Source: Eubacteriales bacterium
GTDB lineage: Bacteria > Bacillota > Clostridia > Oscillospirales > CAG-272
Reading direction: 5' to 3'
Assembly: GCA_045589435.1 (NCBI GenBank)
Contig: JAZNPB010000008.1
Coordinates: 21,478 to 85,477 of the forward strand
DNA length: 64,000 nt
A program made the translations under genes and the position numbers. Position 1 is the stretch's first letter. Each line of letters begins with the position of its first letter. Below the pieces are notes generated by a model that was not told where the DNA came from, did no database searches, and saw only the letters and a list, made by a program, of their open reading frames with translations. Shown one piece after another: positions 10,136-36,238 of this stretch.

Positions 10136-10182
10136 TCCGGCACAATAAAATATTTTTAAGTAATTGAAGGAGTTTGGTTATT

Positions 10183-13100: not shown

Positions 13101-13395
13101 CGACGGAATCAGAGAAATGCAGGAGTACGATAAAGTACACGCAGGTATCGCATTCTTCGGAGGCGGTAAGAACTACGGTGTGCTTCATTATGACAACTTT
13201 GATTTCTATGAATTCTCAAAGCCTTATGAGATCAGTCTTGCCGATGCGGGAAGATATGAGCTTACACTTGCAGCAGGAAATGAAGAATTCTATTTCGTTC
13301 TTTACGACTCAACAACACTTAATTTCCTATATGAAAAACAGGCGGCAATGAAGGGTGACCCCGAGGAGGGTTACAGCTGTCTTTACAAGAAATAA
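10183..13395 (+). CDS. Secreted or membrane-anchored protein with Ig-like (Big_2-type) segments and a beta-helix-like C-terminal half
   Basis: ATG 10183 has RBS gaaggag 10 nt upstream. Signal/anchor KKLILLILALPLFLMICLFTATSGVSLA. Big_2-like stretches (IDYTVYPTNAANQAVTVSY; SSNPEVVSVIGKRLKANGVGRSIITVTS). N/G/V-rich turn repeats (NICFAAYDNVTLNNVVLTGRNMIS; VNIEYSRVRNGRNVIRAFGD). Confidence 0.65.
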   Translation: MTKKLILLILALPLFLMICLFTATSGVSLAVPISVSGIELSSESYVEMDLDNPREQHVIDYTVYPTNAANQAVTVSYEPLVDDTGAEQRLAQFSYDEETRTLKPLSPGSAEVVITTVDGGFKARFTVYVKTKQLVSVEASHPSLGATVDEETGADKYILNPGEEFVVDIKCEPAGAQNVRVDVKSSNPEVVSVIGKRLKANGVGRSIITVTSRANKYISDSFVIEVENPENQSIVIVDKNVSTIETSGSIPISIYATTAYTLDAKVVDGEGNEIKDAYNYVRVWPNANNTAIEYYFVEDYYGTTFIDVTLKTDLGEVTTIRCSATKLHPSEQGEFRIEFDNSNYGMVYDQYDDIYFRIWPDDGSMDLEFKVEFNNGNVLVDQEIIPVGGSFYQLGIYSKFAGISELTVTATDKVTGQTTTKTVPITVKPSMIGVTPPKYDGIEGSFTIGKYNANHTESSPSLYEYVLNYKISDKVGEGFYENLKWISSSDAVYVDENGKIVFVEGKDIEDFVTFTVVFSANGVETKSQAIKIRCVSNGYNATSYKELLKLTNEGKVVVLQNDIVDDFGKDLTGFEYPLYTEMQSTYDTTWYKNQGREAEAKIKVLISFRASVYGNGHEINANNVVSVGQNSSFAENGQPQLTNDAIFRGPLSFVGLADGKGQGGAVTVAAQDNICFAAYDNVTLNNVVLTGRNMISENGTYNLQQLHYAGTVVEVFGDVNIEYSRVRNGRNVIRAFGDDTPFGDVGPDRNINLSVTNSVLSNGRDFIMRVGSNKFIDGREGDKDALSPYIRDDDPTDRVDYSMRHHYSDDKYTDGERSKYDEQFIRTFVTLKNSVLEEPGIFGIGVDSHFAGTALQNGENFKEYAANSEALNYWKNMAKTSYGVKLTLSGDVRMYCWKDLNTVDSTSLIETMNGFNLGLLSAESLAFDIPTLVRSAVNSNSNLVNVVYNPEVNKEVSNGKGTWMQIWNRDANNDGIREMQEYDKVHAGIAFFGGGKNYGVLHYDNFDFYEFSKPYEISLADAGRYELTLAAGNEEFYFVLYDSTTLNFLYEKQAAMKGDPEEGYSCLYKK

Positions 13396-13449: not shown

Positions 13450-13521
13450 ATGAAACAAATTTTATGTAGAATTTTGGTGTTACTCGTAGTAATCGCCGCT
13501 ATATTAGGTTTGTCCTCGTGT
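13450..13521 (+). other. Lipoprotein signal peptide with lipobox (Cys24)
   Basis: Basic n-region (K2, R7), hydrophobic core ILVLLVVIAAILG, lipobox L-S-S-C. Confidence 0.75.
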
Positions 13522-19500: not shown

Positions 19501-22500
19501 GCAAAGACAATGAGCATCACAAATAACGTTCAGTCCAATGCAAACGAAACAGGTTACAGCGTTGTTGTAAGCATTTCCGATACTGCAAACTACGAATGGG
19601 TAGGCGGTACTCAGGAAAATATTGGATTTACATTCAGAATCTATAAACTTGCAGTAGAAGAACCTACCGTATCCAGCACTCACACATATACAAGTGTTGA
19701 GCATACAGTAACCCTTGATAAATTCTACGATTCCTACATGGATATCGTTCTCGGAACAGACAAGGGAACTGCAGCAGGCAACTACTGCGTAGAGATCAAG
19801 CTCGACGATAACTACGTATGGAAATTCGGCCATGACGGTAAAGTAGATTGGACTATAGCACAGGCAACGACATCCATCACGGGTCTTTCGATCACCGGTT
19901 GGACATACGACCAGTATAATGCAGTAACAAATAAGGCAAATTACACAGTAACCACCGATAGCGGATTTGTAATTCCCGAGTCTTACATCAAGGTATGGTA
20001 CAAGTCCACAAAGGCTGGTTCTACATGGTCTGAAATAGTTCCTACCGATGCAGATACCTATCAGTTCAAGGTAGTAGTTGGAACTGATGCTAATGAAAAC
20101 TGGGCAGCTGAAGAATTAATTTCTAATGAATTTACAGTTGAACAGCTTGCAGTAAACGAGCCTACAGCAACCGGAACATATACTTATACGGTTGTTGACA
20201 ATGAGGCGATCGTTCACGAAGTAACTCTTGTAGGTTACGATTCTTCCTACATGACTATAACTCTTGGAACAAACAAGGAATCCACAGCAGGCACTCACAC
20301 AGTAATAATCACTCTTGATAACAACCACAAGTGGGCAGAAAATTCCGACGGTCATGTGGAATGGTCTATTGCAAAGGCAAAGATCGATCTTAAGGATGTA
20401 GAGTGGAATTACAGTGATGCATTCGCTTACAACGGTGAAGCAAAATCTGTAGCTCTTAAGACTGCTAGCCTTCCTGGCGGATTCGGTACTATTTACACTG
20501 TAAATTACACCAATAACTCTGAAACTGACGAGGGCGATTACACAGCTAGTGCAGCATTTGCATTCCTCGGTAACAACAGCAGTAACTACGAGTTCGTTGG
20601 CACAGTAGCAGATTGTGAATGGAAGATCGATCCTGCAGAAGACAATGTGGTAACATTCACAGCTGGTGCAACCTCTTGGACATACGGAGATACAGTTTCC
20701 TATACAGCAACATCTACGTATGGAACACCTACAATTAAGATCTATGACTCTGAAGGAACGCTTCTTGCAACCTCCACAGGAGCAAACGGAACTGCAACAG
20801 TATCCATCAAACTCAATGCAGATACAAATTATAAGGTAACAGTAACCTACGAAACATCTGCTAACTGGAATACTGTAGAAAACGTAGAAGCTACCTTCGG
20901 CGTAGCACAGTCTACGGCTTACACAGCAAAAGCAAATTCGATTGACGATGCAGTTTATGGAGATCTTCTCTTAGCAAAGAGAGCAATTCCTACCGGTACT
21001 GTAACCGTTAATGGAACAACTCTTGCCGGTACATGGAAATGGCAGAATGTTACCAGCGAAACAAAAGTTGGCTCTGCCGGCACAAACACATTCTACGCAA
21101 CCTTCACACCCGATGATGCGAACTACGCAGCAACAACCAATATCGCGGTTACTGTAAACGTAGCAAAATACGGTCTTGCAGTTCCCAATGGTATACAGGT
21201 TGAGTATAACGATGGTCATACAGTTTACTCCGGCGTTGCTTCTTCTTACTTCAATGATAAATTGAGTAGCGACGGTATACTTGACACTGATATTATTGAC
21301 GTAGTGGACAACGGCGGTTCAGCAGTAGGTGACGTTGTAACCTTAACTCTTACAATCAAAGACGAGTTCAAGGGCAATTATTACTGGATCAGTTATAATG
21401 CAGATGAAACCGTGGCTACCACAACGTATATAGTAGTTGTGGATAAAAACAGCTGGGAAGTGGACGGTGAACCTACCGACATGGAATGGACATACGGTGA
21501 GGATGGTGAAGTAGTCGATGAACCTACCGCAAATCCTGTAAGTGGCATAGGTAGTGAGAAAAAGATCACTTATAAGCTTCAGTCTGATGCAGATATTCCT
21601 GAAAACTGGAACGATTGGTCAACTATTTCTGCAGAAACTCCAGCAGGTACGTACGATGTTAAGTTCGTAGTAACTCATCCGAACTATGCTGATATGGAGA
21701 AAACTGTTAAGCTCGTTATCAAGACTCGCGTGGTAGAGCTTCCCACTCTTGCAACTAACTCCTTCACTTACCAGGGTAAGGATGCGCAAGGTAACGATAT
21801 AGTTATAACTCCTGTCGTTACACATAACGATGATGAAACGCTTTATGAAACTATCAACACCGGTAACGTGAACGTTGGAACAGGCTACAAGATCACGTTC
21901 ACTCTTCCTAACAAAAATTACGAATGGGCCGATGGTCATGGTAACGAGGACAACAAGCTTGTCTACGAGCTTACCTATAACATCACAGCCGCAACCGACA
22001 ACGAGGGAACGTTCACAGCTGGTGCAACCTCTTGGACATACGGAGATACAGTTACCTATACAGCAACATCTAAGTATGGAACACCTACAATTAAGCTCTA
22101 TGACTCTGAAGGAACGCTTCTTGAAACCTTCACAGGAGCAAACGGAACTGCAACAGTATCCATTGGTCTCGGTGCAGGTACAGGCTATAAAGTAAAGGTA
22201 ACCTACGAAACATCTGCTAACTGGAATGCTGTAGCAGACAAAGAAACTACCTTCGACGTAGCACAGTCTACGGCATACACAGCAACTGCAGATTCTATAA
22301 ACGCAGTTTATGGAGATCTTCTCTTAAGCAAGAAGGAAATTCCTACCGGTAGCGCATCTATTGCCGGTACATGGAGCTGGAATAGTGCTAATGCTGAAAC
22401 AACTGTTGGTGATTTCGGCACAAACAAATTCTACGCAACCTTCACACCCGATGATGCGAACTACGCAGCAACAACCAATATCGCGGTTACTGTAAACGTA

Positions 22501-25500
22501 GCAAAGGCAGATATTGTTAAACCTAATATCACAGTTAATGCAACTTACGGTGACACCCTTGCAGATATTAAGTCCCAGCTTTCAAACTATGATAACGCAA
22601 ACGGAAACTGGACATGGGTAGATGCAGATACAACATCTGTTGGTGATCACGGACGAAATACGTTTAAGGCTAAGTTCACATCTACTGATAGTAACTTCAA
22701 CAGTATTGATGAATATCCAGTAACTGTAGTAGTTGCAAAGAAAGATATTTCCGGCGCAACAATAACACTTACAGGTCCCGCTCTCACATATACAGGAGCA
22801 GCGCAGACCCAGAACTACACAGTAGAGCTTGATGGATTTGCTACCTTCACTTACGATGATGATAACACTAACGTGGCTACCAACGCAGGTACACATACCA
22901 TCACCATTGCTGGTACAGGTAACTTTGATGGCGAAGTAACTAAGATCTTCGAAATCAAAGAAAAGACCATTACAGCTGATGATATAACAGTTAGTGAAAT
23001 CATCTATAATGGCGAAGAACAGACTCCTTCTGTAACAGTAGAAATCGATGGTATTATAGGCAGCATTACTTATGACGTGACCTGGAGCGATGCTACTGTT
23101 AAGGATGTAAGACCTGAAGGACGCTTGTATTCAGTAACAGTAACCGGTACTGATAACTTTGACGGTGTAGTAACTAAAGAGTTCAACGTTACACCTCTTG
23201 ATATTACAGAGAACGAAAACGTTGAAATATCTCTTGACAACAGTCTAACCTACAACAACGGAACAACTCTTATTCAGCAGTTTACTGTAAGAGTAAAAGT
23301 TGTAACAACCGAGGGTGAAAAGGTGCTTATTGTACCTTGTAATGTACTTGAAAAGACAAATGAAGTAAAAATAGCAGGCTCTCACACATTGCGTGTGGAA
23401 GCAAACGATGATAACTTCACAGGTACTGCGATAACGACCTTCAGCGTTGCAAAGGATAACTACGATATGAGCAATGTTCAATGGAGCGCATCTACGTTCG
23501 AGTACAATCAGACAGAAAGAGAAGTAACTATCGTAAGCGGTCTTCCCACAGGTGTAACTGTAACTGGTTACGAAAAGAATAAGGGAACTGTAAAGGGTGA
23601 TTACACAGCAACAGCAATTCTTTCCTATGATGAGCAGAACTACCATGCTCCTAGCGCAACTCATAATTGGAGTATCACAACAGCATATATCGAAATGCCT
23701 ACAAAGGGAACAACAAGCTTCACTTATGATGGAACCGAAAAGACGTTCTTCAGCCAGACCAGCACTTATTGGACTGCAACAGGAACTCTTAAGGCAACTG
23801 ATGCAAGTACAAGAAAGTATGTTGTAACAATTACCTTCAATGCAGCAGATATTGGTAGCTGTCAGTGGAAAAATGCAGAAACAGGAAAAGAAACTGCAGC
23901 ACTCACATATGAGTACACAATTTCTCCTCTTGATATTACAAACGCAACAGTAAATCTTGATACAAGTACACCTCTTGTTTATGGTGGTAACATGACTCAG
24001 AATGTTATCAGCATTACAAAGGATGGTAAAACATTCTTAGTTAAGGACGGAGAAGTAGTTAACTTCTTAATAAGCGGCAACGTAGCAGAAACAGCAGGTA
24101 TTCATCCATTGACTGTAACTGCAAACAACAGTAACTTCACAGGTTTTGTAACTTGTGACTTCAACGTTGCAAAGGATACCTTTGATATGACTGGTGTTCA
24201 TTGGAATTACTCCGGTACTCCGTTCGTTTATGCAAAGAATACAACTCATACGGTAGAACTCGTAGGTCTTCCCGTAGGCTTAACACCTGTATACAGTGGC
24301 GTATATAGCGCAAGCGAGTTTGGCACTTACACTGCAAAAGTAACGTTCACTTACGATACTGTAAACTATGAAAAACCTACCGTTGCAGATTGTGAATGGA
24401 AGATCAATCCTGCAGAAGACAATGTGGGAACATTCACACCTGGTACAACCTCTTGGACATACGGAGATACAGTTACCTATACAGCAACATCTACGTATGG
24501 AACACCTACAATTAAGCTCTATGACTCTGAAGGAACGCTTCTTGAAACCTTCACAGGAACAAACGGAACTGCAACAGTATCCATTGGTCTCGGTGCAGGT
24601 ACAGGCTATAAAGTAAAGGTAACCTACGAAACATCTGCTAACTGGAATGCTGTAGCAGACAAAGAAACTACCTTCGACGTAGCACCGTCTACAGTTTACA
24701 CAGCAACTGCAGATGCAATTACAGATGCAGTTTATAGAGATCTTCTCTTAAGCAAGAAGGAAATTCCTACCGGTAGCGCATCTATTGCCGGTACATGGAG
24801 CTGGACTAGTGCTAATGCTGAAACAACTGTTGGTGATTTCGGCACAAACACATTCTACGCAACCTTCGAACCTACAGATCCAAACTACGCAGTGAAAACT
24901 AATGTTCCAGTAACTGTAATTGTAGACAAGGCAACCTTCAATATGGATGGCGTTAAGTGGGATTACTCCGGTACACCATTCGTTTATGCAAAGAATACAA
25001 CTTATACGGTAAAACTCGTAGGTCTTCCCGAAGGCTTAACGCCTAAATACGGTGGTGTATGCAGCGCATCTGCAGCAACAGATGATCATTACACCGCTAC
25101 AGTAAGCTTCGAGTACGATGCTAGCAACTATTACGCTCCTGGAGAAATAGATGATCTCGAATGGAAGATTGACAGAGCTCCAGTAAATAGACCTGCAAAG
25201 GATACTACAGTATACACCTACGATGGAGTAACCACCCACGAGTATAAGATCGTGAAGAATGATGAATTCTACAAGATTGAAGGAACACTTTCTGCAATGG
25301 CGGGTGGCACTTATGAGATTACCATTACTCTCGCAGATGGCAATAACACAAAGTGGGATGATGGAAGTACAGCTTCTCTTGTATATGACTTCGTAGTAGG
25401 TAAGGGTACGAACGCATTCACTGGAACTCTTACTATGGAGGGCTGGGAACACGACTCTACTGCAACTACACCTTCTGGCATTACTGGTGCTAAGTGGGAT

Positions 25501-28500
25501 TACGATGCATCTAAAGTAAAGTATGAGTATCGTGATTTAGACGGTGAGTGGTATGCCGAAAGTGAATTCCGTCCAGAGAATGACAGTCCTTTTGGAACAT
25601 ATGCAGTTCGTGCATATATGGAAGGTAACAACAACTACGATAAGTTCTATTCAGATGAAGTTGAATTTGAAATTACCGTAAAGACAGTTACAATTCCCGA
25701 AATTAACGCAACACAGGAATATGTAGAAGACGGAGATAATTACCCAACTATTAAGGGTACCAACGACATATTTGCAGAGGGCGATCACGGTGATTATACT
25801 GTAGAATATGTAGAAGGTATTGGTACAAAAGTTGGAACAACCTATTACGTATATGTAACTCTTAAGGATACTGTAAATACTAAGTGGAGTGATGGTACTA
25901 CTGAACCTAAAACTCTCTCCTATAGACTTACAGGTACACCTGCAAATATTGTGGTTGACGATGGCAATGACAAGATCGTGGACGGTTGGACCTTTGGAGA
26001 GGAACCTGCTGATTATGCAGCGGTTATTAAGGCTCTCACAAAGGTTTACTTCAAGGGTGAAGAAGTTCAAGACTTTGCAATGTCACTTAAGTACTACACA
26101 AGCAATGATGCTAATGCTGTTGGTTCGACAGATGTTCCTCAAGACCACGGAACATACTACTTCAAGATAGTAGTGGCAGCAGGCGCAGGATACGATACAA
26201 CTGAAAGTGACTTCTATCAGTTCGAAATCGCTCAGGCTCCTCTTACCCTTGGAGCAGATGTTACCGGAATCACTATTGGTGGTGTAGAATACGGCACAGC
26301 TCTTGAAAGTGTAAGCGTTTCTAATAAGGTTTACTACTACGACGGAGAAGAGTACAAAGAAATCTCCGGTACATGGTCATGGGATTCCGATAGCGAAGAA
26401 CTCGGCGCAGTAGGAAACTACACACGCACTGCAATCTTCACACCTAGTGATGACAACTACGCTCCTCTCACAGTAGAAGACGTACAGATTACAGTAGTTC
26501 CCAAGACTATCACCGTAACAAACAGCAGCCCTGCTGAAGATAAGGATACCGATGATTATCTTGACCTTGAATTCAAGGAAAGCGGATACGTAGAGGCAAA
26601 CTTTACAACAGTTACATTCAAGTGGAACAACGAAGAAGTAACTCTTGTTAAGGGCGAAAGCGGTGATTACATTGTGACTGTAACTTACGCTGGCGGAACT
26701 GCAACTCAGTACACAAATGCAGGCGTTTACACAGTAATAGTAACTCTCATTCAAAATGCAGACGGCAGTTATAATTACAACTTCGGTGTAAAAAATGTCG
26801 AAGGAACACCTACACCTATTGTAACCCAAACGTTCGTATTCGAGATTGAGAAGGCAACGTTAACACTCACCAATGGATTACCCGAAAATGCAGATTGCAC
26901 TTATGGTGGTACTTACCATGATAAGGGCGCAAGCTACTTTGAAGGATTGGCAACTCTCACACATGGTACAAAGACCTTCACACCTAGTGTAACAATCGCT
27001 TACTCAACAGACGGTTCCACTTATGGTGATGAAAGCACAACTCTTACCATCGGCGATGTAGGATATTACAAGATTACTTACACATATACCGGTAATGGCA
27101 ATTATGCATACTTCTCTGGTGAGGTAAAAATTCAAATTACACCAGCGGAAGTAAGGGTTGAAACTCCTAAACATAAGGGTTCCTTCTACGAGGATACGTT
27201 TAACTTCCTTGATGATAAGAATGATCAACCTAAAGCATATGACGCTGTTACTGGAGTTGAGCTTGTAGGCGGAACATTCAGTTGTGTAAGCTTGCACTTC
27301 AATTCAGAAAACCCAAATAATAGCTATTACATGCTGTCCTATAATCCTAACAACGCTAACTATAAGTGTTCCACTAATTTTGAAGTTCCAGTTTCTCTCA
27401 TTACAGTTGCAACTCTTCAAAGAGGAACCGAACTTACTAAATACGGTAGTATTGCAAAAGCGTTGGCAGCTGCTACAACTAGCGGTGATAAGGTTTGGGT
27501 AATTCCTGATACAAGCGGTAACATTGTTATTGATACAACTGATGTAAGTAAGACTGTTACTGTTAATGCAGGAACAACCTTGATTCTTCCTTACGCTAAG
27601 TATAACGGTGGAAACGATGCGAATGGCACATACAGAAATAATAGCTATGTTGCAACACTTACAGGTGACGGACTTCCCAAGGATACCAATCTTAAGACAC
27701 TTGTAATTCTTGGTAACGGCGTAACACTTGAAGTAAAGGGAACTCTCCATATAGCAGGTGAACTTTCCGGTGGTAACGGCGGAGCTCATTATTCAAGTCA
27801 TACCAAGGGTAATTATGGAGAACTCAGACTTGGTACTGATTCAACTCTTATTATTCCTAAGGATGTGAACGGAAAGATTGAGTGCTACGGCTTCATAACA
27901 CCGCTTGGAGAAAATAACGGTAGTAAGGTTGAAATTAGAGGCGGTACACTTTATCAGCCATTCACTCTCCTTGACCACCAAGGTGGTACTGCTCTTTCCT
28001 CTATCAAAAACAAAATGAATAGCAACCATATTGCACCATTCTATGAGTATCAGTTCAGAAACGTTCAGACCGATGTTTCAATTCACTATGGCGGCAAGCT
28101 AACAGTTTATGCAAACATGGATGCAACTTTACCGTTAGTAAATACTCTTCAACATAATGGTACACTGGTATGTATGGTTGGCCACGAAAAAGATACCGAA
28201 ACTGATAAAATGCCAATGCTTCAGCTTACAAGTTCAGAGTCGTACCTTAACGCTAAATTTGATAAGACAACTGGAATTCTGGACCTTGATCTCTTTGGTG
28301 GAGCAAAGCTTAACAGCATGGTTATGACGATTACGTTTGGAACGGATATTCCATTGTCAACTGAAAGCGTATTCTTCCCATTATCATGGACCATGGATAT
28401 TTCTCTTAATCCTACTGAAGAGCAAAAGTCCCAAAATAGAATAGCGCAATATAACGCTCCTTATATGATGCAGCTTGCTTGGGGAGGCAAATTCACAGTT

Positions 28501-31500
28501 GAGAAGGGCGCCAAATTTACGGTAAAAGATTTGGTTATCCATGATAACTATGAAACTAATCACAATATAGGTCTTCAGGAATATGCAAAAGCCAGCCCTG
28601 ATAAAGTGACAAGTAGACAAGATGCGATGTTCATTCTTAGAGGCGAGCTTTTTGTAACAGACGCAATCGGCGGCAAAGTTCGTGCTGACACTCCCGGTGC
28701 AAAGATTATCGCAGCTAGCGTTTCCTGCGTTTGGTATAAAGTGACTAGTAATAAAGCTGCAACAGAAGCTCTTACTTATAATCTCTCACTCTGGAAGCAT
28801 AGCAAGAGTGATGAAACTATCACCTATACTCAGTCTGATGTATCTGCAGCTGCAGGTGTGATTGCTTGGTATAACGGAAACGATTGGGTATCCGGATCTA
28901 CAGATACCGGCTTTGATGTTGTTATCAAGTACGTTGGTATCAATTCCGATGGAACGGAAACGGAAATCAAGAGTGATTATCACCATACCTATGATATATC
29001 CACGCTTAGTACGATCTTTGCAAACACGTTTATTGATCTTTCCGATGCTGATGATGGTAACTATAAGTTCATCGGTTGGTACTTATGTAAAGGCAATAAC
29101 GGATTCACTGATGAATACAGAATAATTACCGATAGAATTAGTCTTGAAGAGCTTTATACAAAGCTTGCTGCTGACGGTTATAACAACGTTACTATCTACT
29201 GCGTAATGGCTAACCCATCTTACACATTTGAGTATGATGATGGAACTGATTCTACAGCAGATGATAGCACGGCAAAATATTCTGCAACTCAGCTTCCTTA
29301 TGCATCTCTTGTAACTCTCGATCAGTATGACTTTGATACAACGGTTTCAAAATATCATACTGGCTGGAAGCTTGTTGATGCTAACGGAAACGAAATTGCA
29401 ACATTCACCAGAACAGATGTTATCACATGGAGCGTACCTGATCTTGAAGATATAGTAACAGCATATCTTTCTTCTATAGAGTGTGTTGATAATAACTACA
29501 CCTTCAAGCTTGTTGCAGTATGGACAGACAAGACGGCTGTTACTGTAAATTACGGTGAAAATGTTATTGATCTTGAAAATACTGTAATCTATCTCAACCA
29601 TGCATTTGGTCAGAGTAGTTACGACGATCTCGCGGATCTTACAATGGGAGATACTGAATACGATAAGAGCCTTTACTCTAACGGATGGGAAACTCCCGAT
29701 GGTGTAACCGTTTCCGGAACGACTGTAACTATTACGTCAACTGCAAACGTAGAGATCAAGGCTAAATGGCTCAATAAGGTTGTTCTCACTATCTATTATG
29801 GTGAAAATAGTCTTGGCTTGTCCCCTGTAACTACTATTTATCTAAATACAAGCCAAAATCAGACGTCTTATAAGACCAGTGTTCTTGCCGCTAAGACTGA
29901 CTCTACCAAGGAAACATTCTTCAATGGTTGGAAGGAGATGAGCAACTGTACAGTTAATGCTGCCGGAGATATAATCAATGTAACTTCCGGAGCAACAGAA
30001 GCTTCTATTCTTGCCAATACATGGGGAGTTAAGGATTGTGTAACAGTTGAATACGGCAATAACAACTTAGGTCTTCCCTTATCTAAGATAATCTATATTA
30101 ATCCTGATACTAATTCTTGTGTTATCGATAACGTAAATGCAAATGATGCTAATGTTACCGTAATTAAGTACTTTGACACTTGGGTTGGATTTGCTCTTAA
30201 TGCAGATGGTACTTATACTTACACAACCGACACAGGTATAACAATTACTATCAATGGCAGAAACATCACACTTGGTGGCAGCCTGACAGACACTGTAGAT
30301 AACGTTATTATCACAGCAAAGTGGGGAGAAAAAGAAAATATCAAGTTCAGTGGAAACAACGGTCTTACCGGTGAGAGTAATGTTAGTGTTGACGTTGAAG
30401 GTTATGTAAGAACTAATACCAATGATAACTTTGTTGCAGATATACAAAAAATGTTGGCAGATAAGATCAAAGATCAGGCTAATATAAAGGATAGTGATCC
30501 TGATGTAAATCAGTATTTCTATGGTTTATCTTATAATGGCAAGACTTATAGTGAATACGATTCTGATAATCCTTATTCCAATATGGAGTATGTAGAAAAG
30601 GTTAACTCCATAACAGTTGAATGGACTGGCAAATATGAAGTAAAAGTTTCGTCAAGCAATGCTAATGTAACGGTTAATGGAAATTCAGTAAGCAATAACG
30701 GAAGTGTATATTTTAAGCCCGGTGACAAAGTTACAGTAAGTGTTAGTTACACTCAGACTGAAAAACAAACTACTACCATAACAGGCGCAGATAAGACTAC
30801 TTATACTTCTCCATTCGATATGCCTAGCCAAGCGGTTACAATTAGTGCTAGTAGCTCAAGCTGTATCGCAGCCGGAACACTCATCACCCTCGCAGATGGA
30901 ACACAGAAGAAGGTTGAAGATCTCCTTGACACTGATATTCTTCTCGTTTACGATCACGAGAGAGGAGAATACGTTGCTTCACCTATTGTATTCATCGAGA
31001 GAGACGGTTGGAATTACTACAACGTAATCTATCTTGAATATTCAAACGGTGTTACTAATAAGCTTATTTACGAGCACGCTATGTTCGACCTCACTCTTAA
31101 TACTTACGTATATATCACAGAGGCAAATTACCTTGATTACGTAGGTCACGAGTTCGCATACTTCAACGGTGAATCTATTGAAAGTGTGACTCTTGAAAAC
31201 GCATACGTTAAGAATGAGTACACAGGCTGCTTCAGCTTGGTAACAGCAGTTCATCTCAATTACTTCATTGATGGAATGTTCTCGATCCCAGGTGGTATTG
31301 AAGGCATATTCAACATCTTCGAGTACGGAGAGGACCTTAAGTATGATTCTGAACAGATGCAGAAGGATATTGAAACTTACGGACTTTACACTTACGAAGA
31401 TTTCGCAGAGTATGTTCCGGAAGAAGTATTCTATGCATTCCAGGCACAGTACTTCAAGGTTGCAGTTGGCAAGGGTATGATCACATTTGAAGAAATCATC

Positions 31501-31545
31501 GAAATGATTGATAGATACCTTGTTAAAAACGGAGTTATTGAATAA
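13450..31545 (+). CDS. Giant (6031 aa) surface lipoprotein/adhesin: MBG/YDG-like repeats, conserved module, Listeria-Bacteroides-type repeats, C-terminal Hint domain
   Basis: One uninterrupted 18,096-nt frame with RBS aaagga upstream. Signal peptide plus lipobox MKQILCRILVLLVVIAAILGLSSC. Dozens of 80-110-aa repeats with recurring motifs (F.YDG..H, IY.G..Q, ATYGD.L, GTY.Y.A.FTP.D.NY, NYKW.D). No LPXTG, SLH, choline-binding or dockerin motif noticed. Confidence 0.9.
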   Translation: MKQILCRILVLLVVIAAILGLSSCNIFIEPELTTYDLVVEDFDREVVFGSELDLEGLYLRATTGDDVKVIPVNASMIKNGDTSSVGEKELTIEYGGFSWQLSYDVYYKVEHIVDGMVYDSQMVMSRDELFYVKEPSKTGSIFLSWDKAIPSELTDNLTITAVFLDGLELPKFSATYGDTLGDLELPEAKGGHWEWKHDLDTPVGNAGKLNTFTLAFIPEVNTENAIEFDVNISVAKKELEIRVLEDTFEYDGEKHNVKYAIYDGDKLVDYFVNVIEFSSPQSVIGTYDYTIQMADANYTATARKGSFSIVKIAVTVRVELDKSSIKYGEDFPGYRIIVEKDGEAFDFEDGIKLGIIKPATLEKGYYDIVATVKDENGDDIDNLYKYDITYVNAGFTVEGIDFNPGKPQFSTADGTDIFYGDKLSKVVFDPHPNGEWTWDFDYAGGDTVGDANPEPKLFRAIFTPYDTSYNVYYADIAIEVRKKELNVDLDMNNPAEKTVTVIYDGKEHGIKYVIWDWDANHEEKIDLTDKFSVTGNVTYVTAKEEGYKIVIRIDHPNYTGEDEFKLIIKKAVPETDFDRIITATWQSGMTLASIELPQGYAWEPVGNTAPNKVAVTGAGTYTYTATFTPEDTTNYLTVTDDFTVVVTHANSTIDGLNASYDSWTFNNNDHKLADLLSGITVTGTDRVVKYYYNGREVTTLKEAGTYLITVRVLESGQYKEVSADTIVIIKRATAEINNYGIPDNGWTYGHDAKTPYAYKNLSYVGDIVVEYKLASAADSAYTTTVPTLAGAYVARFSIVGGEGYNWNSAEPKYVNFTIAKAVVTAPTITSKIYTGSSQKADVEPTDLYTIKENLGGTNAGNYNVVLALTDSANYKWEKTDAAEYTATFSIGKAPNAIAPFEAGTWVYGDEISHSTTATFGEVVKITYYDKQNNKVTSFDAGEYVARAEVEGTSNYEGAVLSVNFTVGQLPVAVPELKENTFIYTGSLIKPEFKTAIPENAPYWVTNDGKVAVNNSTTPTYAVTLQLKNNNYKWADGDTSNIKSLTYVINKAEAKISGLTITGWTFGDDANSPSASTTFGTISYDYYVNGAWQTAAPKNAGNYTVRATVNGTGNFDGDFATFDFTIAKADATINGVNADKKYTTVYSGSKFSIAGVTSSHTETTPVYTIKNSAGVTVGEMVNADTYTVIISLASTANYNAAESIEVEVFIDKFDVHTPELVSNSRMYNKGIYKPAVKTDAHNKYYTYEYSTPDSTIVGTYSVNFTLNNENYRWDDATFANVLTYNITKANAEITLTSNAFEKYYRIQGYTRADVITGVGRSHEESELSYSIESFGDANTYTVIVSLPASHNYNAAENKTITVTIKKQLVYAPSISDLIYNGAAQAPDVDDSDLYEVFENVGGTNAAAYNVVLRLKNSANYKWSDDATDEAEKTTVVYNIKPATITLSELTTKTFKYLDTISFTSQKSYNVDNKTDFGVVRYIYSKTADFAVTVTPDDVGFYYVKAYVDGDINWGYEETLPVRFQITERPFDVPALSWTSKVYNDEILKPTVAKDDNIYSVQFVTENSEDVGTYTVKFTLTNSNYKWNDAYSGTERSRTYSITPATPTIAGFASTSKPYDTHAMNLSTTASIPGSTLSATITYYSAKDDAAVIPAPTNFGTYYVKASVGSGKNWSAASTDFIEINITKASANITVDTSDIVVTYGDTFALPIATTNLGSVNVDKTVADLVNVGTYYVTYTVVGNTNYNGDTETVKVIIGELAVDEPTVIGTLTYLTNASGVAIEQQVNLGVLPSYMTIKEGTNKGTLAGGYTVEITLDKNHKWAENSDGRVEWSIAKAKLTKPTANTATFTYNTESQTYTPVNFDAKTMSITNNVQSNANETGYSVVVSISDTANYEWVGGTQENIGFTFVINKLEVVEPQAIGTLTYMVDSENVAIAQQVNLGVLPSYMTVVEGTDVKSAAGNYTAKITLDENHKWASGSDGDVEWSIAKAKLTKPTANTTTFTYNTESQTYTPVNFDAKTMSITNNVQSNANETGYSVVVSISDTANYEWVGGTQENIGFTFRIYKLAVEEPTVSSTHTYTSVEHTVTLDKFYDSYMDIVLGTDKGTAAGNYCVEIKLDDNYVWKFGHDGKVDWTIAQATTSITGLSITGWTYDQYNAVTNKANYTVTTDSGFVIPESYIKVWYKSTKAGSTWSEIVPTDADTYQFKVVVGTDANENWAAEELISNEFTVEQLAVNEPTATGTYTYTVVDNEAIVHEVTLVGYDSSYMTITLGTNKESTAGTHTVIITLDNNHKWAENSDGHVEWSIAKAKIDLKDVEWNYSDAFAYNGEAKSVALKTASLPGGFGTIYTVNYTNNSETDEGDYTASAAFAFLGNNSSNYEFVGTVADCEWKIDPAEDNVVTFTAGATSWTYGDTVSYTATSTYGTPTIKIYDSEGTLLATSTGANGTATVSIKLNADTNYKVTVTYETSANWNTVENVEATFGVAQSTAYTAKANSIDDAVYGDLLLAKRAIPTGTVTVNGTTLAGTWKWQNVTSETKVGSAGTNTFYATFTPDDANYAATTNIAVTVNVAKYGLAVPNGIQVEYNDGHTVYSGVASSYFNDKLSSDGILDTDIIDVVDNGGSAVGDVVTLTLTIKDEFKGNYYWISYNADETVATTTYIVVVDKNSWEVDGEPTDMEWTYGEDGEVVDEPTANPVSGIGSEKKITYKLQSDADIPENWNDWSTISAETPAGTYDVKFVVTHPNYADMEKTVKLVIKTRVVELPTLATNSFTYQGKDAQGNDIVITPVVTHNDDETLYETINTGNVNVGTGYKITFTLPNKNYEWADGHGNEDNKLVYELTYNITAATDNEGTFTAGATSWTYGDTVTYTATSKYGTPTIKLYDSEGTLLETFTGANGTATVSIGLGAGTGYKVKVTYETSANWNAVADKETTFDVAQSTAYTATADSINAVYGDLLLSKKEIPTGSASIAGTWSWNSANAETTVGDFGTNKFYATFTPDDANYAATTNIAVTVNVAKADIVKPNITVNATYGDTLADIKSQLSNYDNANGNWTWVDADTTSVGDHGRNTFKAKFTSTDSNFNSIDEYPVTVVVAKKDISGATITLTGPALTYTGAAQTQNYTVELDGFATFTYDDDNTNVATNAGTHTITIAGTGNFDGEVTKIFEIKEKTITADDITVSEIIYNGEEQTPSVTVEIDGIIGSITYDVTWSDATVKDVRPEGRLYSVTVTGTDNFDGVVTKEFNVTPLDITENENVEISLDNSLTYNNGTTLIQQFTVRVKVVTTEGEKVLIVPCNVLEKTNEVKIAGSHTLRVEANDDNFTGTAITTFSVAKDNYDMSNVQWSASTFEYNQTEREVTIVSGLPTGVTVTGYEKNKGTVKGDYTATAILSYDEQNYHAPSATHNWSITTAYIEMPTKGTTSFTYDGTEKTFFSQTSTYWTATGTLKATDASTRKYVVTITFNAADIGSCQWKNAETGKETAALTYEYTISPLDITNATVNLDTSTPLVYGGNMTQNVISITKDGKTFLVKDGEVVNFLISGNVAETAGIHPLTVTANNSNFTGFVTCDFNVAKDTFDMTGVHWNYSGTPFVYAKNTTHTVELVGLPVGLTPVYSGVYSASEFGTYTAKVTFTYDTVNYEKPTVADCEWKINPAEDNVGTFTPGTTSWTYGDTVTYTATSTYGTPTIKLYDSEGTLLETFTGTNGTATVSIGLGAGTGYKVKVTYETSANWNAVADKETTFDVAPSTVYTATADAITDAVYRDLLLSKKEIPTGSASIAGTWSWTSANAETTVGDFGTNTFYATFEPTDPNYAVKTNVPVTVIVDKATFNMDGVKWDYSGTPFVYAKNTTYTVKLVGLPEGLTPKYGGVCSASAATDDHYTATVSFEYDASNYYAPGEIDDLEWKIDRAPVNRPAKDTTVYTYDGVTTHEYKIVKNDEFYKIEGTLSAMAGGTYEITITLADGNNTKWDDGSTASLVYDFVVGKGTNAFTGTLTMEGWEHDSTATTPSGITGAKWDYDASKVKYEYRDLDGEWYAESEFRPENDSPFGTYAVRAYMEGNNNYDKFYSDEVEFEITVKTVTIPEINATQEYVEDGDNYPTIKGTNDIFAEGDHGDYTVEYVEGIGTKVGTTYYVYVTLKDTVNTKWSDGTTEPKTLSYRLTGTPANIVVDDGNDKIVDGWTFGEEPADYAAVIKALTKVYFKGEEVQDFAMSLKYYTSNDANAVGSTDVPQDHGTYYFKIVVAAGAGYDTTESDFYQFEIAQAPLTLGADVTGITIGGVEYGTALESVSVSNKVYYYDGEEYKEISGTWSWDSDSEELGAVGNYTRTAIFTPSDDNYAPLTVEDVQITVVPKTITVTNSSPAEDKDTDDYLDLEFKESGYVEANFTTVTFKWNNEEVTLVKGESGDYIVTVTYAGGTATQYTNAGVYTVIVTLIQNADGSYNYNFGVKNVEGTPTPIVTQTFVFEIEKATLTLTNGLPENADCTYGGTYHDKGASYFEGLATLTHGTKTFTPSVTIAYSTDGSTYGDESTTLTIGDVGYYKITYTYTGNGNYAYFSGEVKIQITPAEVRVETPKHKGSFYEDTFNFLDDKNDQPKAYDAVTGVELVGGTFSCVSLHFNSENPNNSYYMLSYNPNNANYKCSTNFEVPVSLITVATLQRGTELTKYGSIAKALAAATTSGDKVWVIPDTSGNIVIDTTDVSKTVTVNAGTTLILPYAKYNGGNDANGTYRNNSYVATLTGDGLPKDTNLKTLVILGNGVTLEVKGTLHIAGELSGGNGGAHYSSHTKGNYGELRLGTDSTLIIPKDVNGKIECYGFITPLGENNGSKVEIRGGTLYQPFTLLDHQGGTALSSIKNKMNSNHIAPFYEYQFRNVQTDVSIHYGGKLTVYANMDATLPLVNTLQHNGTLVCMVGHEKDTETDKMPMLQLTSSESYLNAKFDKTTGILDLDLFGGAKLNSMVMTITFGTDIPLSTESVFFPLSWTMDISLNPTEEQKSQNRIAQYNAPYMMQLAWGGKFTVEKGAKFTVKDLVIHDNYETNHNIGLQEYAKASPDKVTSRQDAMFILRGELFVTDAIGGKVRADTPGAKIIAASVSCVWYKVTSNKAATEALTYNLSLWKHSKSDETITYTQSDVSAAAGVIAWYNGNDWVSGSTDTGFDVVIKYVGINSDGTETEIKSDYHHTYDISTLSTIFANTFIDLSDADDGNYKFIGWYLCKGNNGFTDEYRIITDRISLEELYTKLAADGYNNVTIYCVMANPSYTFEYDDGTDSTADDSTAKYSATQLPYASLVTLDQYDFDTTVSKYHTGWKLVDANGNEIATFTRTDVITWSVPDLEDIVTAYLSSIECVDNNYTFKLVAVWTDKTAVTVNYGENVIDLENTVIYLNHAFGQSSYDDLADLTMGDTEYDKSLYSNGWETPDGVTVSGTTVTITSTANVEIKAKWLNKVVLTIYYGENSLGLSPVTTIYLNTSQNQTSYKTSVLAAKTDSTKETFFNGWKEMSNCTVNAAGDIINVTSGATEASILANTWGVKDCVTVEYGNNNLGLPLSKIIYINPDTNSCVIDNVNANDANVTVIKYFDTWVGFALNADGTYTYTTDTGITITINGRNITLGGSLTDTVDNVIITAKWGEKENIKFSGNNGLTGESNVSVDVEGYVRTNTNDNFVADIQKMLADKIKDQANIKDSDPDVNQYFYGLSYNGKTYSEYDSDNPYSNMEYVEKVNSITVEWTGKYEVKVSSSNANVTVNGNSVSNNGSVYFKPGDKVTVSVSYTQTEKQTTTITGADKTTYTSPFDMPSQAVTISASSSSCIAAGTLITLADGTQKKVEDLLDTDILLVYDHERGEYVASPIVFIERDGWNYYNVIYLEYSNGVTNKLIYEHAMFDLTLNTYVYITEANYLDYVGHEFAYFNGESIESVTLENAYVKNEYTGCFSLVTAVHLNYFIDGMFSIPGGIEGIFNIFEYGEDLKYDSEQMQKDIETYGLYTYEDFAEYVPEEVFYAFQAQYFKVAVGKGMITFEEIIEMIDRYLVKNGVIE
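18721..19644 (+). repeat. Two tandem 462-bp (154-codon) in-frame repeat units
   Basis: The motif caggtcaacc is at 18799 and 19261 (offset 462). Cores 18940-19173 and 19402-19635 differ at 6 of 234 nt. More diverged partial copies at about 19645-19860 and 20140-20380. Confidence 0.9.
20611..21168 (+). repeat. Dispersed intragenic repeat, copy D1
   Basis: Encodes DCEWKIDPAEDNVVTFTAGATSWTYGDTVSYTATSTYGTPTIKIYDSEGTLL...FYATFTPDDANYAATTNIAVTVNVAK. Homologous to D2 and D3. Confidence 0.9.
22012..22506 (+). repeat. Dispersed intragenic repeat, copy D2
   Basis: Offset from D1 is 1356 nt (acctcttgga at 20671 versus 22027). Its 3' part (ttctacgcaaccttcacacccgatgatgcgaactacgcagcaacaaccaatatcgcggttactgtaaacgtagcaaa) is identical to D1. 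Confidence 0.9.
24388..24868 (+). repeat. Dispersed intragenic repeat, copy D3
   Basis: Offset from D2 is 2421 nt (acct at 22027 versus 24448). Perfect D2/D3 runs of 126 nt (22139-22264), 64 nt and about 69 nt. The two off-frame ORFs 21875..22195 and 24368..24616 translate to near-identical peptides. Confidence 0.9.
27091..29210 (+). other. Conserved module of about 700 aa shared with the truncated paralog at 33886..35900 (function unknown, beta-solenoid-like)
   Basis: Collinear protein similarity by eye. Giant first, paralog second: GNGNYAYFSG / NGNYAYSG; VWVIPDTSGNIVIDT / VWVIPNTSGDVIIDT; LILPY in both; ECYGFITPLGENNGSKV..LYQPF / NCYGFITEESKNNGSQV..IYQPF; FFPLSWTMDISLN / YFPISWVFDISLN; F.GWYL..IY (IYCVM / IYAKW). 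Confidence 0.8.
29000..30325 (+). repeat. Five Listeria-Bacteroides-type (Flg_new-like) repeats
   Basis: Repeated pattern ..Y..(F/Y/H).GW......(I/V).A.W: YKFIGWYLC..IYCVM; YHTGWKLVD..LVAVW; YSNGWETPD..IKAKW; FFNGWKEMS..LANTW; YFDTWVGFA..ITAKW. Confidence 0.65.
30862..31284 (+). other. Hint (Hedgehog/intein-type) autoprocessing domain, 141 aa, starting at Cys5805
   Basis: Block A: SSSS|CIAAGTLITLADGTQKKVEDLLDTDILLVYD. Block B-like: NKLIYEHAMF (the His is present). Block F/G-like: GCFSLVTAVHLNYFIDGMFS. The usual terminal His-Asn and a +1 Cys/Ser/Thr extein residue are absent. Confidence 0.75.
31285..31542 (+). other. 86-aa acidic, aromatic-rich, probably helical tail following the Hint core
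   Basis: IPGGIEGIFNIFEYGEDLKYDSEQMQKDIETYGLYTYEDFAEYVPEEVFYAFQAQYFKVAVGKGMITFEEIIEMIDRYLVKNGVIE. No family recognised. Confidence 0.5.
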
Positions 31546-33243: not shown

Positions 33244-35900
33244 TTAGTAATTTAACAGTTTAAGCTTTGTATAAACTGTTCCGGCAGTGGAAGTCCAAGT
33301 TATTTGAGCACTTGTCGATATGCGACCACTATATCCTTGTTCTGTTAGTGTTGTACCATTTTCTGTTAATCTAACGCTATTTTTATAATAACCATAGGTT
33401 CCCAATCCGTAAGTTCCTCCGGATACTTTGGATGTTATAGTCACCGTACCATTCGCATTATATTGAACAGTTACACTATGATAATCACCTGCGGCCAAGG
33501 ACGTTGTATCAAATGTTATTCTTGCTAACACAACAATTGAAGTTGCTGTGCAAGACGAACCTTCACTACCATTTATTGTTACGTTTTGTGTTTTATCACT
33601 ACCGTTAGTAATGTTATTAACGCCCTCAACATAACCTGTGGTGAATTTAGGAAGCGTATCAGTACCTAAAATATGATAGGACTTCATGTGATATACCAAC
33701 GTCGTTCCTGATTCTACGTAAATTACTTTAACACCGCTATAGTTTCTAGTGTCAAATCCGCCTTCGTAAAGAATAGCATTTCCGTTCGCATCAGCATAGT
33801 ACGCTTCACATGTGATATATGCTCCATCAGGGAGATCTGGAAGCGTTACCGCTACATAACTAGATACAGGTTTAATTTCTGTGATCCACTTTGCATAAAT
33901 TTTAATTACATCAGAAGATAGCACATCATAATTCGTAGCACTTGTGATAGATCCAAATCCAACACTAAATGTTGTATTATCAAGATACCAACCATCAAAT
34001 ATCTTATCACTTCTTTCATGTGTAGGTGTGGGAAGCTTTGAAACTACATATGCTTCTTTGACCTCGTCATATTTCACTACAATATCATCACATGCATTGC
34101 CGCCGTTAGTAACAAATTCAAGTGTAACTTGATCTAGTATCCATTTTCCATTGTATACTTTTGCAGATCTTCCTGACGTAGTTATGCCAACGGGCGCACT
34201 TACACTAACCATATTACCGTCCGCATCATATGATTCGAAGTAACAAAGTGAAGTGTTAATAATGTTACTATGCCATGTATCTATGTGTCCAGTGGTGGTT
34301 GTTTTGCCTAATATTGTTGAAGTTGTTGTATAGTAAACACATTCAAACAATGTCAGGGTTGGACTTTCTGAAATACTAACAGTTGCGCCATGATTATTAG
34401 AGTAAATCTTACCTGCGAAGTTGGTTGCAACTAATGATCCATTGACTACAAATACTGCTTCGCTCGTTATTGGACACGGATTGGGATCGCCGGTTGGAAG
34501 ATTGTGAATACTGTCATAAACGGCGAAGTTTCCAGCGGTAAATTCAGTATTTTCATTTACAGTCAATCTTGCACCATGCATTAACTTTGTTGGATAGTTG
34601 ATTTGATATTTAGCAATAGCAGTTTGATCGTTAGCTTGATTCAATGATATATCAAATACCCAGCTTATTGGGAAGTAATACTCCGATGTGTTTACGTCAA
34701 TCGAGCCAAGATCCACGCCCAGTACTTCTCCCAATATTAATGTCATTTTAATCTCATTCAACCTTGCACCACCATATATATCTAACTTACATGGATTGCC
34801 GCTTTGTGCCAACAATTTATCATGATCATATTTCGCTACAACTTTACTGTAAGTTGAATCTGTAAGTTCAAGAAGCGCAGCAGATCCATTTCCAATTACT
34901 GACAAGGTTGCAGGATTGTGTTTTCCACCGGCATAAAGGTTGGCCCATCCATACAAACTAGCAGCATGATATATTGTCATTTCGGGTCGAACGTTCATTA
35001 GAACAAACTCACTAAATGGAGCCTGTGACAAAGTGTTTTTCTTATCGTACACAGTCTTCATATAGGTACCGCCGCCAAAGTCAAGGAATACAAATGGCTG
35101 ATAAATGCTTCCTGCGTTGAGTATTACTTGGCTTCCGTTGTTTTTAGACTCTTCTGTAATAAAGCCATAACAATTAATAACAGCGTCTTTAGAACCTGTA
35201 GGTATTTCTATTTTTGAATTGCTGCCCAATACTAATTCTGCATACAAACCTTCCGTGTGACCTGCATAAGGTGTACCGCCGGAACCACCAGCCAACTGGC
35301 CTGATATCTCAAGGATACCATTCAGCGTGATAGTCTTGCCAGCCGACAACTTAACTAATGTCATTCTTTCTTTCAATTCTGAAAGTGAGTAACCACCTAC
35401 TATCGTTGCGGTGGTGCTGGTGTTTCTACCATTAGCATCATCTGTAGTTCCGTAAGGAAGAATAAGAGTTACATCAGAATCAATAGTAAGATCAGTATCG
35501 ATAATTACATCGCCTGAGGTGTTAGGAATTACCCAAACGGTTCCACCACCGGTACTGTCATTCGCTGCTGTAACAGCATCAAATATTGTGTAATAATTGG
35601 TGCTATTATAGGTGGCTACTGCCGTAAGGTTGACAGTATAATCTGTTTTTGATACAGATTTATAATTTGAACTTGTAGGAGTGAATACAATTGTAAATGT
35701 TGCAACACCCGCGTCTATCGAAACGCCAGTAAACTCAAACGCACCGTCAACACTTGCAACGCCTGTAGTTGAAATCTTACTCAAATCGATAAGATTCTTA
35801 TAGGTCTTACCTGTGTAAGTAGGCCATGTCGTTACTGTAGGTGTATCCTGTGTAATCTGGATAGTTACACTAGTTCCGGAGTAGGCATAATTGCCATTAT
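33244..35900 (-). pseudogene. 5'-truncated paralog of the giant protein's conserved module (no start codon context, RBS or signal peptide); frame still open
   Basis: Homology to giant aa about 4548-5250 begins abruptly at NGNYAYSG (about nt 35900), in the last strand of an MBG-like repeat. The ORF-track N-terminus (TTG at 36015, MKASSTLPYSVTRPPFFHIITHFFHF) is antisense translation of a GTGG-box region. No in-frame ATG for about 200 codons. One Listeria-Bacteroides-type repeat (FDGWYLD..IYAKW) plus a unique 213-aa tail. Confidence 0.7.
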
Positions 35901-36238
35901 GGGAAGTTGACAATTTTTTTAGGATTTTTGCGGTAGAGAAGTGGAAAAAGTGGGTGATGATGTGGAAAAAAGGAGGGCGGGTTACGGAGTAGGGAAGCGT
36001 TGACGATGCCTTCAAGCAAAAATGAGCGGGAAACTGATTTTTCTTTTGTGAATATACTGAAAATGCTTGAAAGGTGCTTTGGATTTGCGGTTTTTTAGGA
36101 GTTTGTTAAAAAATCTGCGCAATGTAACAAAATAATCACATTTTCGCCACAAAACTCTAAAAAAATCTCAACAAAACCTACATAGTTTATATAAAAATTC
36201 GAAATATATTAACTTTTATTAAATATTGGAAAAAGATG

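Follow-up and report, generated by a model that had tools for sequence, protein, structure and literature searches.

A Hint domain with a predicted four-helix tail at the C terminus of a giant, predicted bacterial lipoprotein

The stretch of DNA analyzed here (the window, 64,000 nucleotides of contig JAZNPB010000008.1 from a Eubacteriales bacterium) carries a giant surface-protein gene on its + strand (13450–31545), a single uninterrupted open reading frame (ORF) with a translation of 6031 aa. The last 227 residues of this protein, directly followed by the stop codon, consist of a genuine Hedgehog/intein-type Hint domain and a small helical domain, together termed the Hint-tail module. As read from the sequence, the module probably functions in a single-turnover cut near the C terminus, a maturation step of the protein, and we place this reading at a probability of roughly 0.6. 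Hint domains are among the very few cofactor-free devices by which proteins convert a peptide bond to a reactive thioester, and their earlier natural uses (protein splicing, Hedgehog cholesteroylation, and E1-free ubiquitin-like conjugation) have been important biologically or as tools.

Identity and catalytic residues of the Hint domain

The Hint domain (30862–31284, + strand) is 141 aa long, includes blocks A, B, F, and G and lacks a terminal His-Asn. The segment from Cys5805 to Ser5945 reads CIAAGTLITLADGTQKKVEDL ... LIYEHAMF ... CFSLVTAVHLNYFIDGMFS, and is followed by IPGG. A Ser-rich flexible linker seen in the translation, SASSSS (30844–30861, + strand), precedes it and ends at Ser5804 (codon at nt 30859–30861), so that ISASSSS leads directly into Cys5805. 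In an earlier reading made without database searches (the sequence-only reading), Cys5805 after SSSS was described as opening a 141-aa Hint domain with blocks A, B, and F/G, and both the coordinates and the residues were confirmed.

The window protein scored 20.3 bits against the Pfam Hint model PF01079, below the cut-off of 29.7 (E 4e-4), with no match to Hint_2 or PT-HINT in Pfam and none in NCBIfam, and a phmmer search of PDB sequences with the module as a single sequence returned chance matches only. Beyond this sub-threshold score, the identity of the domain is established by the family profile and the predicted fold, which are decisive. Hint and tail are spanned by 117 homologues (E 4e-127 to 5e-7), all named "hypothetical protein" at source. 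The family profile, A1, is a 72-sequence alignment, and its best match among PDB sequences is the Tetrahymena bacterial intein-like (BIL) domain BIL2 (6y75), matched across the whole Hint domain with E 4e-5, with an intein-type protein and Hedgehog Hh-C following as weaker matches. An AlphaFold2 model of Hint and tail from the A1 alignment reached a predicted local distance difference test score (pLDDT) of 92.9 and a predicted template modeling score (pTM) of 0.87. Foldseek gave 54 PDB matches at E <= 1e-3, and among the matches listed 50 of 50 have the Hint/intein fold. The top match is again 6y75 (E 2.9e-8, target TM 0.81), and the matches include 1at0 (Hedgehog Hh-C, E 1.5e-6), 2lwy (C. thermocellum BIL, E 1.6e-6), and the DnaB and RecA mini-inteins, with target TM values of about 0.8. 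When the 72 members were scanned singly, PF01079 matched 42 (E <= 0.01, best 1.1e-8), Hint_2 eight, Intein_splicing and Hom_end_hint seven each, and PT-HINT (PF07591) one. Of the profile and fold check that the sequence-only reading had proposed, the parts resting on the family profile, AlphaFold2, and Foldseek came out positive, and the part resting on Pfam matches of the window protein did not.

Residue conservation was counted in an alignment of 287 non-identical Hint-tail modules. Cys5805, which is Hint residue 1 (30862–30864, + strand) and, from its conservation, the predicted nucleophile of an N-to-S acyl shift, is conserved without exception in the 274 modules covering the position and also in 126 of 126 representatives; its presence in 71 loci is no independent test, as these were chosen by a motif that requires the Cys. 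The block-B histidine, His5876 at Hint position 72 (31075–31077, + strand), is found in 287/287 modules and aligns with His72 of Hedgehog (Hh). Asp76 (270/287), His96 (271/287), the block-F His131 (236/287), and Ser/Thr141 (260/287) are widely kept. Positions 142–143 are Met/Ile-Pro, with Asn at 143 in 0/287 modules. The window junction reads S-I-P-G-G, and the module is terminal rather than an insertion in a host protein, so that it does not qualify as an intein. Across the family the module follows a flexible Ser/Gly-rich linker, and residue −1 is mostly small (Ser in 39, Gly in 29, Asn in 12, and Thr in 11 of 126).

Hint domains without the Asn can only cleave or transfer (PMC7664689, PMC7765530). 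By analogy, we infer that the window Hint domain could form an N-terminal thioester and that splicing would be impossible, because there is neither a terminal Asn nor a downstream nucleophile, which would leave cleavage or transfer only. The sequence-only reading had likewise reported no terminal His-Asn and no C-extein nucleophile, and had restricted the chemistry to cleavage or transfer. The first point is borne out by the IPGG that follows the domain and by a junction at which Asn never occurs in the 287 modules; the second agrees with the retention of Cys1 and the block-B His and the loss of Asn, as judged from intein, BIL, and Hedgehog chemistry.

A hidden Markov model of the family aligns with Drosophila Hh-C without a gap, residues 1–73 to 1–73, which is consistent with the coordinates of the 1at0 profile match. 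The Drosophila Hh-C sequence used has the expected length, and D46, T69, H72, and C143 fall at the expected numbers. Sequence alignment alone places Glu5850, at Hint position 46 (30997–30999, + strand), opposite Asp46 of Hedgehog, which is the general base that activates cholesterol. Position 46 is Asp or Glu in 189/287 modules (66%), the remaining third being hydrophobic, and position 48 is Asp, Glu, or His in 242/287 (84%). The alignment is suggestive of an equivalence between Glu5850 and Hedgehog Asp46.

The tail domain and its distribution

The 86-aa tail (nt 31285–31542) has a pI of 4.12 and contains 18 Asp and Glu, 6 Lys and Arg, and 16 Phe, Tyr, and Trp residues. It is composed of a post-Hint linker, IPGGIEGIFNIFEYGE (31285–31332, + strand), kept in the family as PGGIxGLFNIFEY, and a 70-aa acidic domain of four helices (31333–31542, + strand), as judged from predicted fold and conservation. 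When modeled alone, residues 5962–6031 form four helices with a pLDDT of 95.5, and the tail is predicted to be a separate, autonomously folding domain; the pTM of 0.87 for the whole module would imply a fixed arrangement of Hint and tail. Asp5973, Tyr5977, Gly5978, Lys6003, Lys6008, and Thr6012 are near-invariant, and a G-K-G-x-x-T loop runs into helix 4. Conservation of the tail is no lower than that of the Hint domain, with mean pairwise identities of 50% and 45%, respectively. No match to the tail was found in Pfam (single sequence and 48 members), among PDB sequences, or in the PDB by Foldseek (0 matches at E <= 10).

Among 1.84 billion representative proteins (clusters at 50% identity), a profile built from the tail only (A2) matched 2208 clusters at E <= 1e-3, 1869 of them at E <= 1e-10. 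Architecture was judged in the best 150 of the 2208 matches. The tail is at the extreme C terminus in 150/150, and a Hint domain lies directly upstream in all 128 proteins of sufficient length. Cys1 is 220–237 aa from the protein end in the 126 representatives, with one exception at 312 aa. From these architectures, Hint and tail appear to evolve together as one two-part module. The Hedgehog-like layout of Hint plus tail proposed in the sequence-only reading was therefore upheld, both here (128/128) and in 71 of the 80 bacterial loci described below; that reading had named tail homologues never associated with Hint domains as grounds for refuting its acceptor proposal, and the opposite was observed. 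A minority of modules extend 38–86 aa past the tail (P0029, P0038, P0047, P0050, P0060, P0106, and P0110), the extensions being mostly low-complexity and rich in Pro, Thr, Ser, and Asp, with that of P0060 (86 aa) non-repetitive.

This large, unannotated Hint clade has relatives at no fewer than 478 loci in species-representative genomes (one genome per species), and also in phages. The best 80 of these at least 478 loci all belong to Clostridia (Christensenellaceae, Oscillospiraceae, and Eubacteriales) or Bacilli and are mainly of gut or rumen origin, with human, ruminant, rabbit, mouse, or chicken gut as the named sources. The module occupies the 218–270 aa before the stop codon in 71/80, in ORFs of 800 to >3500 aa, and several paralogues with the same tail can occur in one genome (three in JAZOCA01, two in SVRZ01). 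The N termini vary and include lipoboxes, ordinary signal peptides, a G-x-S-S-W-x-I anchor motif, SipW-type TTFAWFTD, and type IV pilin-like leaders. Upstream domains among 38 members are Listeria-Bacteroides repeats (Flg_new, 22/38) and also MBG, subtilase, BspA-type leucine-rich repeats (LRR), and dockerin, and many members with cleavable signal peptides have no other wall-binding domain in Pfam.

Three observations concern these N termini. A hydrophobic stretch ending in G-[FAY]-S-[ST]-W-[IVL]-I recurs on many Hint-tail proteins and is also found on 213–251-aa proteins encoded directly upstream in 7/44 loci (L005, L006, L011, L014, L015, L017, and L027); as a sequence motif it may mark a class of signals or anchors not yet described, or a surface system of small and large subunits. 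Some Hint-tail proteins of 1300–2200 aa open with a type IV pilin-like leader, K-[GA]-F-T-x-V-E followed by a hydrophobic helix (grouped here are P0205, P0236, P0238, P0239, and P0260; loci L039, L043, and L072). Others open with a SipW/TasA-type TTFAWFTD (P0130, P0187, P0197, P0252, and P0256; loci L040, L052, and L059), so the module also closes giant pilin-like and TasA-like proteins.

No downstream ORF family was common to more than four loci among those of the 71 loci with enough downstream sequence, and no upstream gene was generally conserved, the best case being the small proteins at 7/44 loci. These small proteins have the N-terminal signal motif in common and do not suggest an acceptor. 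The comparison of neighboring genes identified no adduct, acceptor, or partner gene.

The IMG/VR collection contributed 26 related loci. Ten of these (L081–L090) encode the same Hint and tail, 33–42% identical to the window module, at the C terminus of proteins of ∼725–800 aa. The protein of L082 has no signal peptide by eye, a low-complexity N terminus, and a charged, helix-favoring middle. In the three loci examined for gene order (L082, L087, and L090; 436–12672 in L082) the order is terS, terL, portal, Hint-tail gene, giant ORF, with the giant ORF at least 746–1993 aa long and running off the locus end. That of L082 (at least 1993 aa) contains an HEFTH metalloprotease-like motif and glycine-rich hydrophobic segments, and from its sequence the product resembles a virion protein of the polyvalent or ejected kind. 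Recoding of a stop codon downstream of the phage Hint-tail gene was considered and rejected, the giant ORF running off the locus end. Other phage Hint proteins, of sister Hint clades (L091–L104), carry at least three other types of short C-terminal tail, 36–87 aa long; by eye, most share a post-Hint N-x-Y-x-I-x-x-M-K-[FY]-V that resembles the window linker FNIFEYGEDLKYD. One (L096) has a collagen-like tail-fiber N terminus, and L099 has two Hint-ending genes in tandem. A tblastn search of GenBank phages and PLSDB plasmids returned no match.

Processing by the module and alternative readings

The 6031-aa protein begins with a predicted signal peptide with lipobox, MKQILCRILVLLVVIAAILGLSS followed by C24 (13450–13521, + strand), read from the sequence. 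By inspection, and without a dedicated predictor, the lipobox is LGLSSC at Cys24; its LSSC fits the lipobox consensus [LVI][ASTVI][GAS]C. The protein is thus a predicted lipoprotein with an N-terminal lipid anchor at Cys24. In the proposed mechanism, the lipoprotein would be exported and its C terminus would fold, whereupon Cys5805, with help from His5876, would attack the carbonyl of Ser5804 and convert the Ser5804–Cys5805 bond into a thioester by an N-to-S acyl shift. Water or another nucleophile would then resolve the thioester and the 25-kDa Hint-tail unit would depart. The cut would fall between Ser5804 and Cys5805, with the upstream part ending in ...VTISASSSS and the Hint-tail unit starting with CIAAGTLITLADGTQK, and the giant protein would stay lipid-held at its N terminus and end at Ser5804 on the distal tip. 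How or when the thioester is resolved would be governed by the tail, for which the model predicts a rigid docking onto the Hint domain. The occurrence of the cleavage, its site, and the role of the tail are what we infer from the data above.

The sequence-only reading had envisaged release of the adhesin by this cleavage. Such release is unexpected because the N-terminal lipobox would keep the giant protein on the cell, and the cut would instead remove the 25-kDa module. A self-cutting device that is independent of context fits the observations, because the module is found on proteins with varied export and anchor signals as well as on phage virion proteins without a signal.

Several points weigh against a plain C-terminal cut. 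Family members have Ile/Val in place of the block-B Thr. A simple pro-domain that removes itself explains neither the near-invariant polar residues of the tail (Asp, Tyr, Lys, Lys, and Thr) nor the acidic residue at the position equivalent to Hedgehog Asp46, and these conserved residues, taken from the alignment, hint at a specific ligand. A tail placed close to the active site is a putative feature of the model. The best 80 carriers are, moreover, nearly all uncultured, metagenome-assembled genomes.

An alternative is the Hedgehog-type transfer put forward in the sequence-only reading, in which the tail would bind a specific nucleophile for activation by the acidic residue at position 46 and Ser5804 would become esterified or amidated, the acceptor being a lipid, a glycan, a wall component, a host molecule, or a lysine of a partner protein. 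We rate such a transfer as the likeliest of the alternatives, though less probable than the plain cut. Its layout is that of Hog, with the tail found only behind Hint among the best 150 A2 matches, and the gapless alignment with Hh-C puts Glu5850 on Asp46, with an acidic residue in 66% of modules and Asp, Glu, or His at position 48 in 84%. The near-invariant polar tail residues, including the G-K-G-x-x-T loop, would suit the binding of a nucleophile, and many members with a signal peptide have no other wall-binding Pfam domain. BIL2, the best structural and profile match, passes its upstream domain to a lysine (PMC8616854). Against this, a third of members have a hydrophobic residue at position 46 and no conserved neighboring gene offers itself as a partner. 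The sequence-only reading had placed the tail in the position of the Hedgehog sterol-recognition region (SRR); this holds for the layout and goes no further, as the tail is acidic and soluble-looking, with no detectable similarity to that hydrophobic, membrane-binding region (PMC7906309). A wall polymer, also suggested there as an acceptor, does not stand as a universal one: the same Hint and tail occur on signal-less proteins of phage head operons, which are made and assembled in the cytoplasm, and therefore an envelope polymer cannot be the acceptor throughout and a cell-envelope acceptor is not general. On this account the module would be the prokaryotic and phage counterpart of Hog, a single-turnover, cis-acting ligase with a tail that selects the acceptor, a position 46 that activates it, and transfer via Ser5804, a proposal that we consider less likely than not.

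The remaining explanations are less probable. An assembly pro-domain, by analogy with the intramolecular chaperones that end phage tail spikes and fibers one in which the helical tail would nucleate folding or oligomerization of a fiber and Hint would then excise the unit by hydrolysis, appears unlikely. The module does lie at the extreme C terminus of very long, repeat-rich proteins, and phage proteins of sister Hint clades likewise end in short helical tails, in one case with a collagen-like tail-fiber N terminus. Phage C-terminal chaperone domains abut the fiber, whereas the flexible Ser/Gly linker sets the module apart from the domains upstream, and these are too varied (Flg_new repeats, subtilase, LRR, and dockerin) for a shared assembly role; the tail is moreover predicted to be a compact, monomeric four-helix domain that forms one unit with Hint (pTM 0.87), with no coiled coil. 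Still less credible is the logic of polymorphic toxins, with Hint as the peptidase of a pre-toxin and with a Sec-exported filament or phage-packaged protein that would shed the 86-aa tail as a small effector or toxin. HINT with a C-terminal toxin is a classic arrangement on Sec-exported filamentous and phage-packaged proteins (PMC3482391), and both kinds of carrier also bear the Hint-tail module. Its C-terminal domain, however, belongs to one tail family across 2208 clusters rather than being polymorphic, and paralogues with the same tail recur within one genome (JAZOCA01 and SVRZ01). PT-HINT matches 1/72 members, no downstream ORF family is found in more than four of the loci with enough downstream sequence, and the gene next to that of the window protein is a convergent class-V aminotransferase; without the Asn, the tail could not separate from Hint. 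That the Hint fold is catalytically dead and serves instead, without processing, for binding or as a structural tip, which the missing block-B Thr and the many sub-threshold Pfam scores would allow, is very improbable given that Cys1 and His72 are invariant despite a mean pairwise Hint identity of ∼45% and that a small residue sits at position −1 in a flexible linker.

Were cleavage the sole outcome, surface proteins of uncultured gut Firmicutes would have in the module a C-terminal maturation signal of a new type. If transfer were true, the module would be a bacterial ligase of the Hog type, and a fiber of ∼5800 residues would carry a latent thioester warhead on its distal tip. Sortase-free covalent adhesion or cross-linking would then be possible, with a bearing on adhesion to hosts or particles, on C-terminal protein labeling, and potentially on the origin of Hedgehog autoprocessing.

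Genomic setting and comparison with known systems

The window is ordinary chromosome, with genes for UvrA, TypA, PNPase, and formate-tetrahydrofolate ligase nearby, and no second copy of Hint or tail was found within it. In the body of the giant protein, a Pfam scan in 1000-aa pieces gave MBG_3 (E 0.003) and Big_3_5 (E 1.9e-5), both sub-threshold, and a scan in 3000-aa pieces gave no match. The label of an MBG/Listeria-Bacteroides protein given in the sequence-only reading thus has sub-threshold backing only in the window protein itself and fits its homologues better, 22/38 of which carry Flg_new. A conserved core domain of ∼600 aa (aa 4641–5260; 27370–29229, + strand), with the motifs TLxLPY ..., YD..GG ..., and PFN ..., was recovered by jackhmmer in 96 of 156 long family members and has no match in Pfam or among PDB sequences.

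The giant gene is preceded, within 7692–13395, by genes for an ABC ATPase (7692–8423), a 571-aa membrane protein (8420–10135), and a 1073-aa secreted protein (10174–13395), the latter two with no family match. The 1073-aa protein has homologues encoded upstream of the Hint-tail gene at three loci (L010, L015, and L017), and the membrane protein has one at L010. The next gene on the 3' side encodes the convergent class-V aminotransferase. A 923-aa ORF at 33244–36015 (− strand), with no Pfam or NCBIfam match, has repeats (TVxITQDTPTVTTWP ... YTGKTY) that resemble the Ig-like repeats of the giant protein, and may be a second surface protein.

The occurrence of Hint domains in secreted bacterial proteins is already known; for the Hint-tail clade with its unmatched four-helix tail, no description was found in the literature. 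With Hedgehog/Hog the module shares an exported N-terminal part, a flexible junction, Cys1, Hint, and a helical region of ∼70–100 aa at the C-terminal end, as well as the lack of Asn and of splicing. The positions of Cys1 and His72 are also common to both, an acidic position 46 (Asp or Glu in 66% of modules) is a putative further likeness, and PF01079 is the commonest Pfam model (42/72). The two differ at the junction, where Ser precedes Cys-Ile in the window and Gly precedes Cys-Phe in Hedgehog, and in that the window domain has neither the block-B Thr nor an equivalent of Cys143 and SCYA, residues 141–143 being Ser-Ile-Pro. The window tail is unrelated to the SRR, the PF01079 match stopping at profile position 87 of 213, and the carriers are bacteria and phages, in which no sterol is expected.

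C-terminal Hint-like domains are known in secreted proteobacterial proteins (PMC2362128). These domains and BIL type B (Hint_2) (Burglin 2008; Dassa and Pietrokovski) resemble the module in their non-conserved, secreted hosts, in the lack of an intein C-terminal motif, and in the N-terminal cleavage that is expected of them. The motif pattern of BIL type B fits, with PF13403 matching 8/72 members weakly (best E 3.7e-4); these families are proteobacterial or myxobacterial, and no report of a four-helix tail in them was found. BIL type A has a conserved C-terminal His-Asn, which is absent in Hint-tail modules. The closest match by both profile (E 4e-5) and Foldseek (E 2.9e-8) is BIL2 of Tetrahymena BUBL1 (6y75 and 6tmm), in which transfer of the Hint thioester to a lysine yields an isopeptide bond (PMC8616854). 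BIL2 differs in keeping the terminal Asn (the crystallized mutant is N143A), in lying between ubiquitin-like domains, and in being eukaryotic, intracellular, and ∼10% identical to the window Hint domain.

PT-HINT shares the placement of Hint near the C terminus of Sec-exported filamentous or phage-packaged proteins, followed by a short terminal domain; it differs in that the terminal domain of the window type is uniform in kind and comes with no immunity gene, PF07591 matching 1/72. The Peptidase S74 phage fiber chaperone, to which neither module nor tail has a Pfam or PDB match, provides a functional comparison only. The likeness to the sortase/LPXTG system lies in mechanism alone, a C-terminal segment being removed via a cysteine thioester that a nucleophile resolves; in the Hint-tail module there is no LPXTG, and the cysteine is in the substrate itself, cis-acting and of single turnover.

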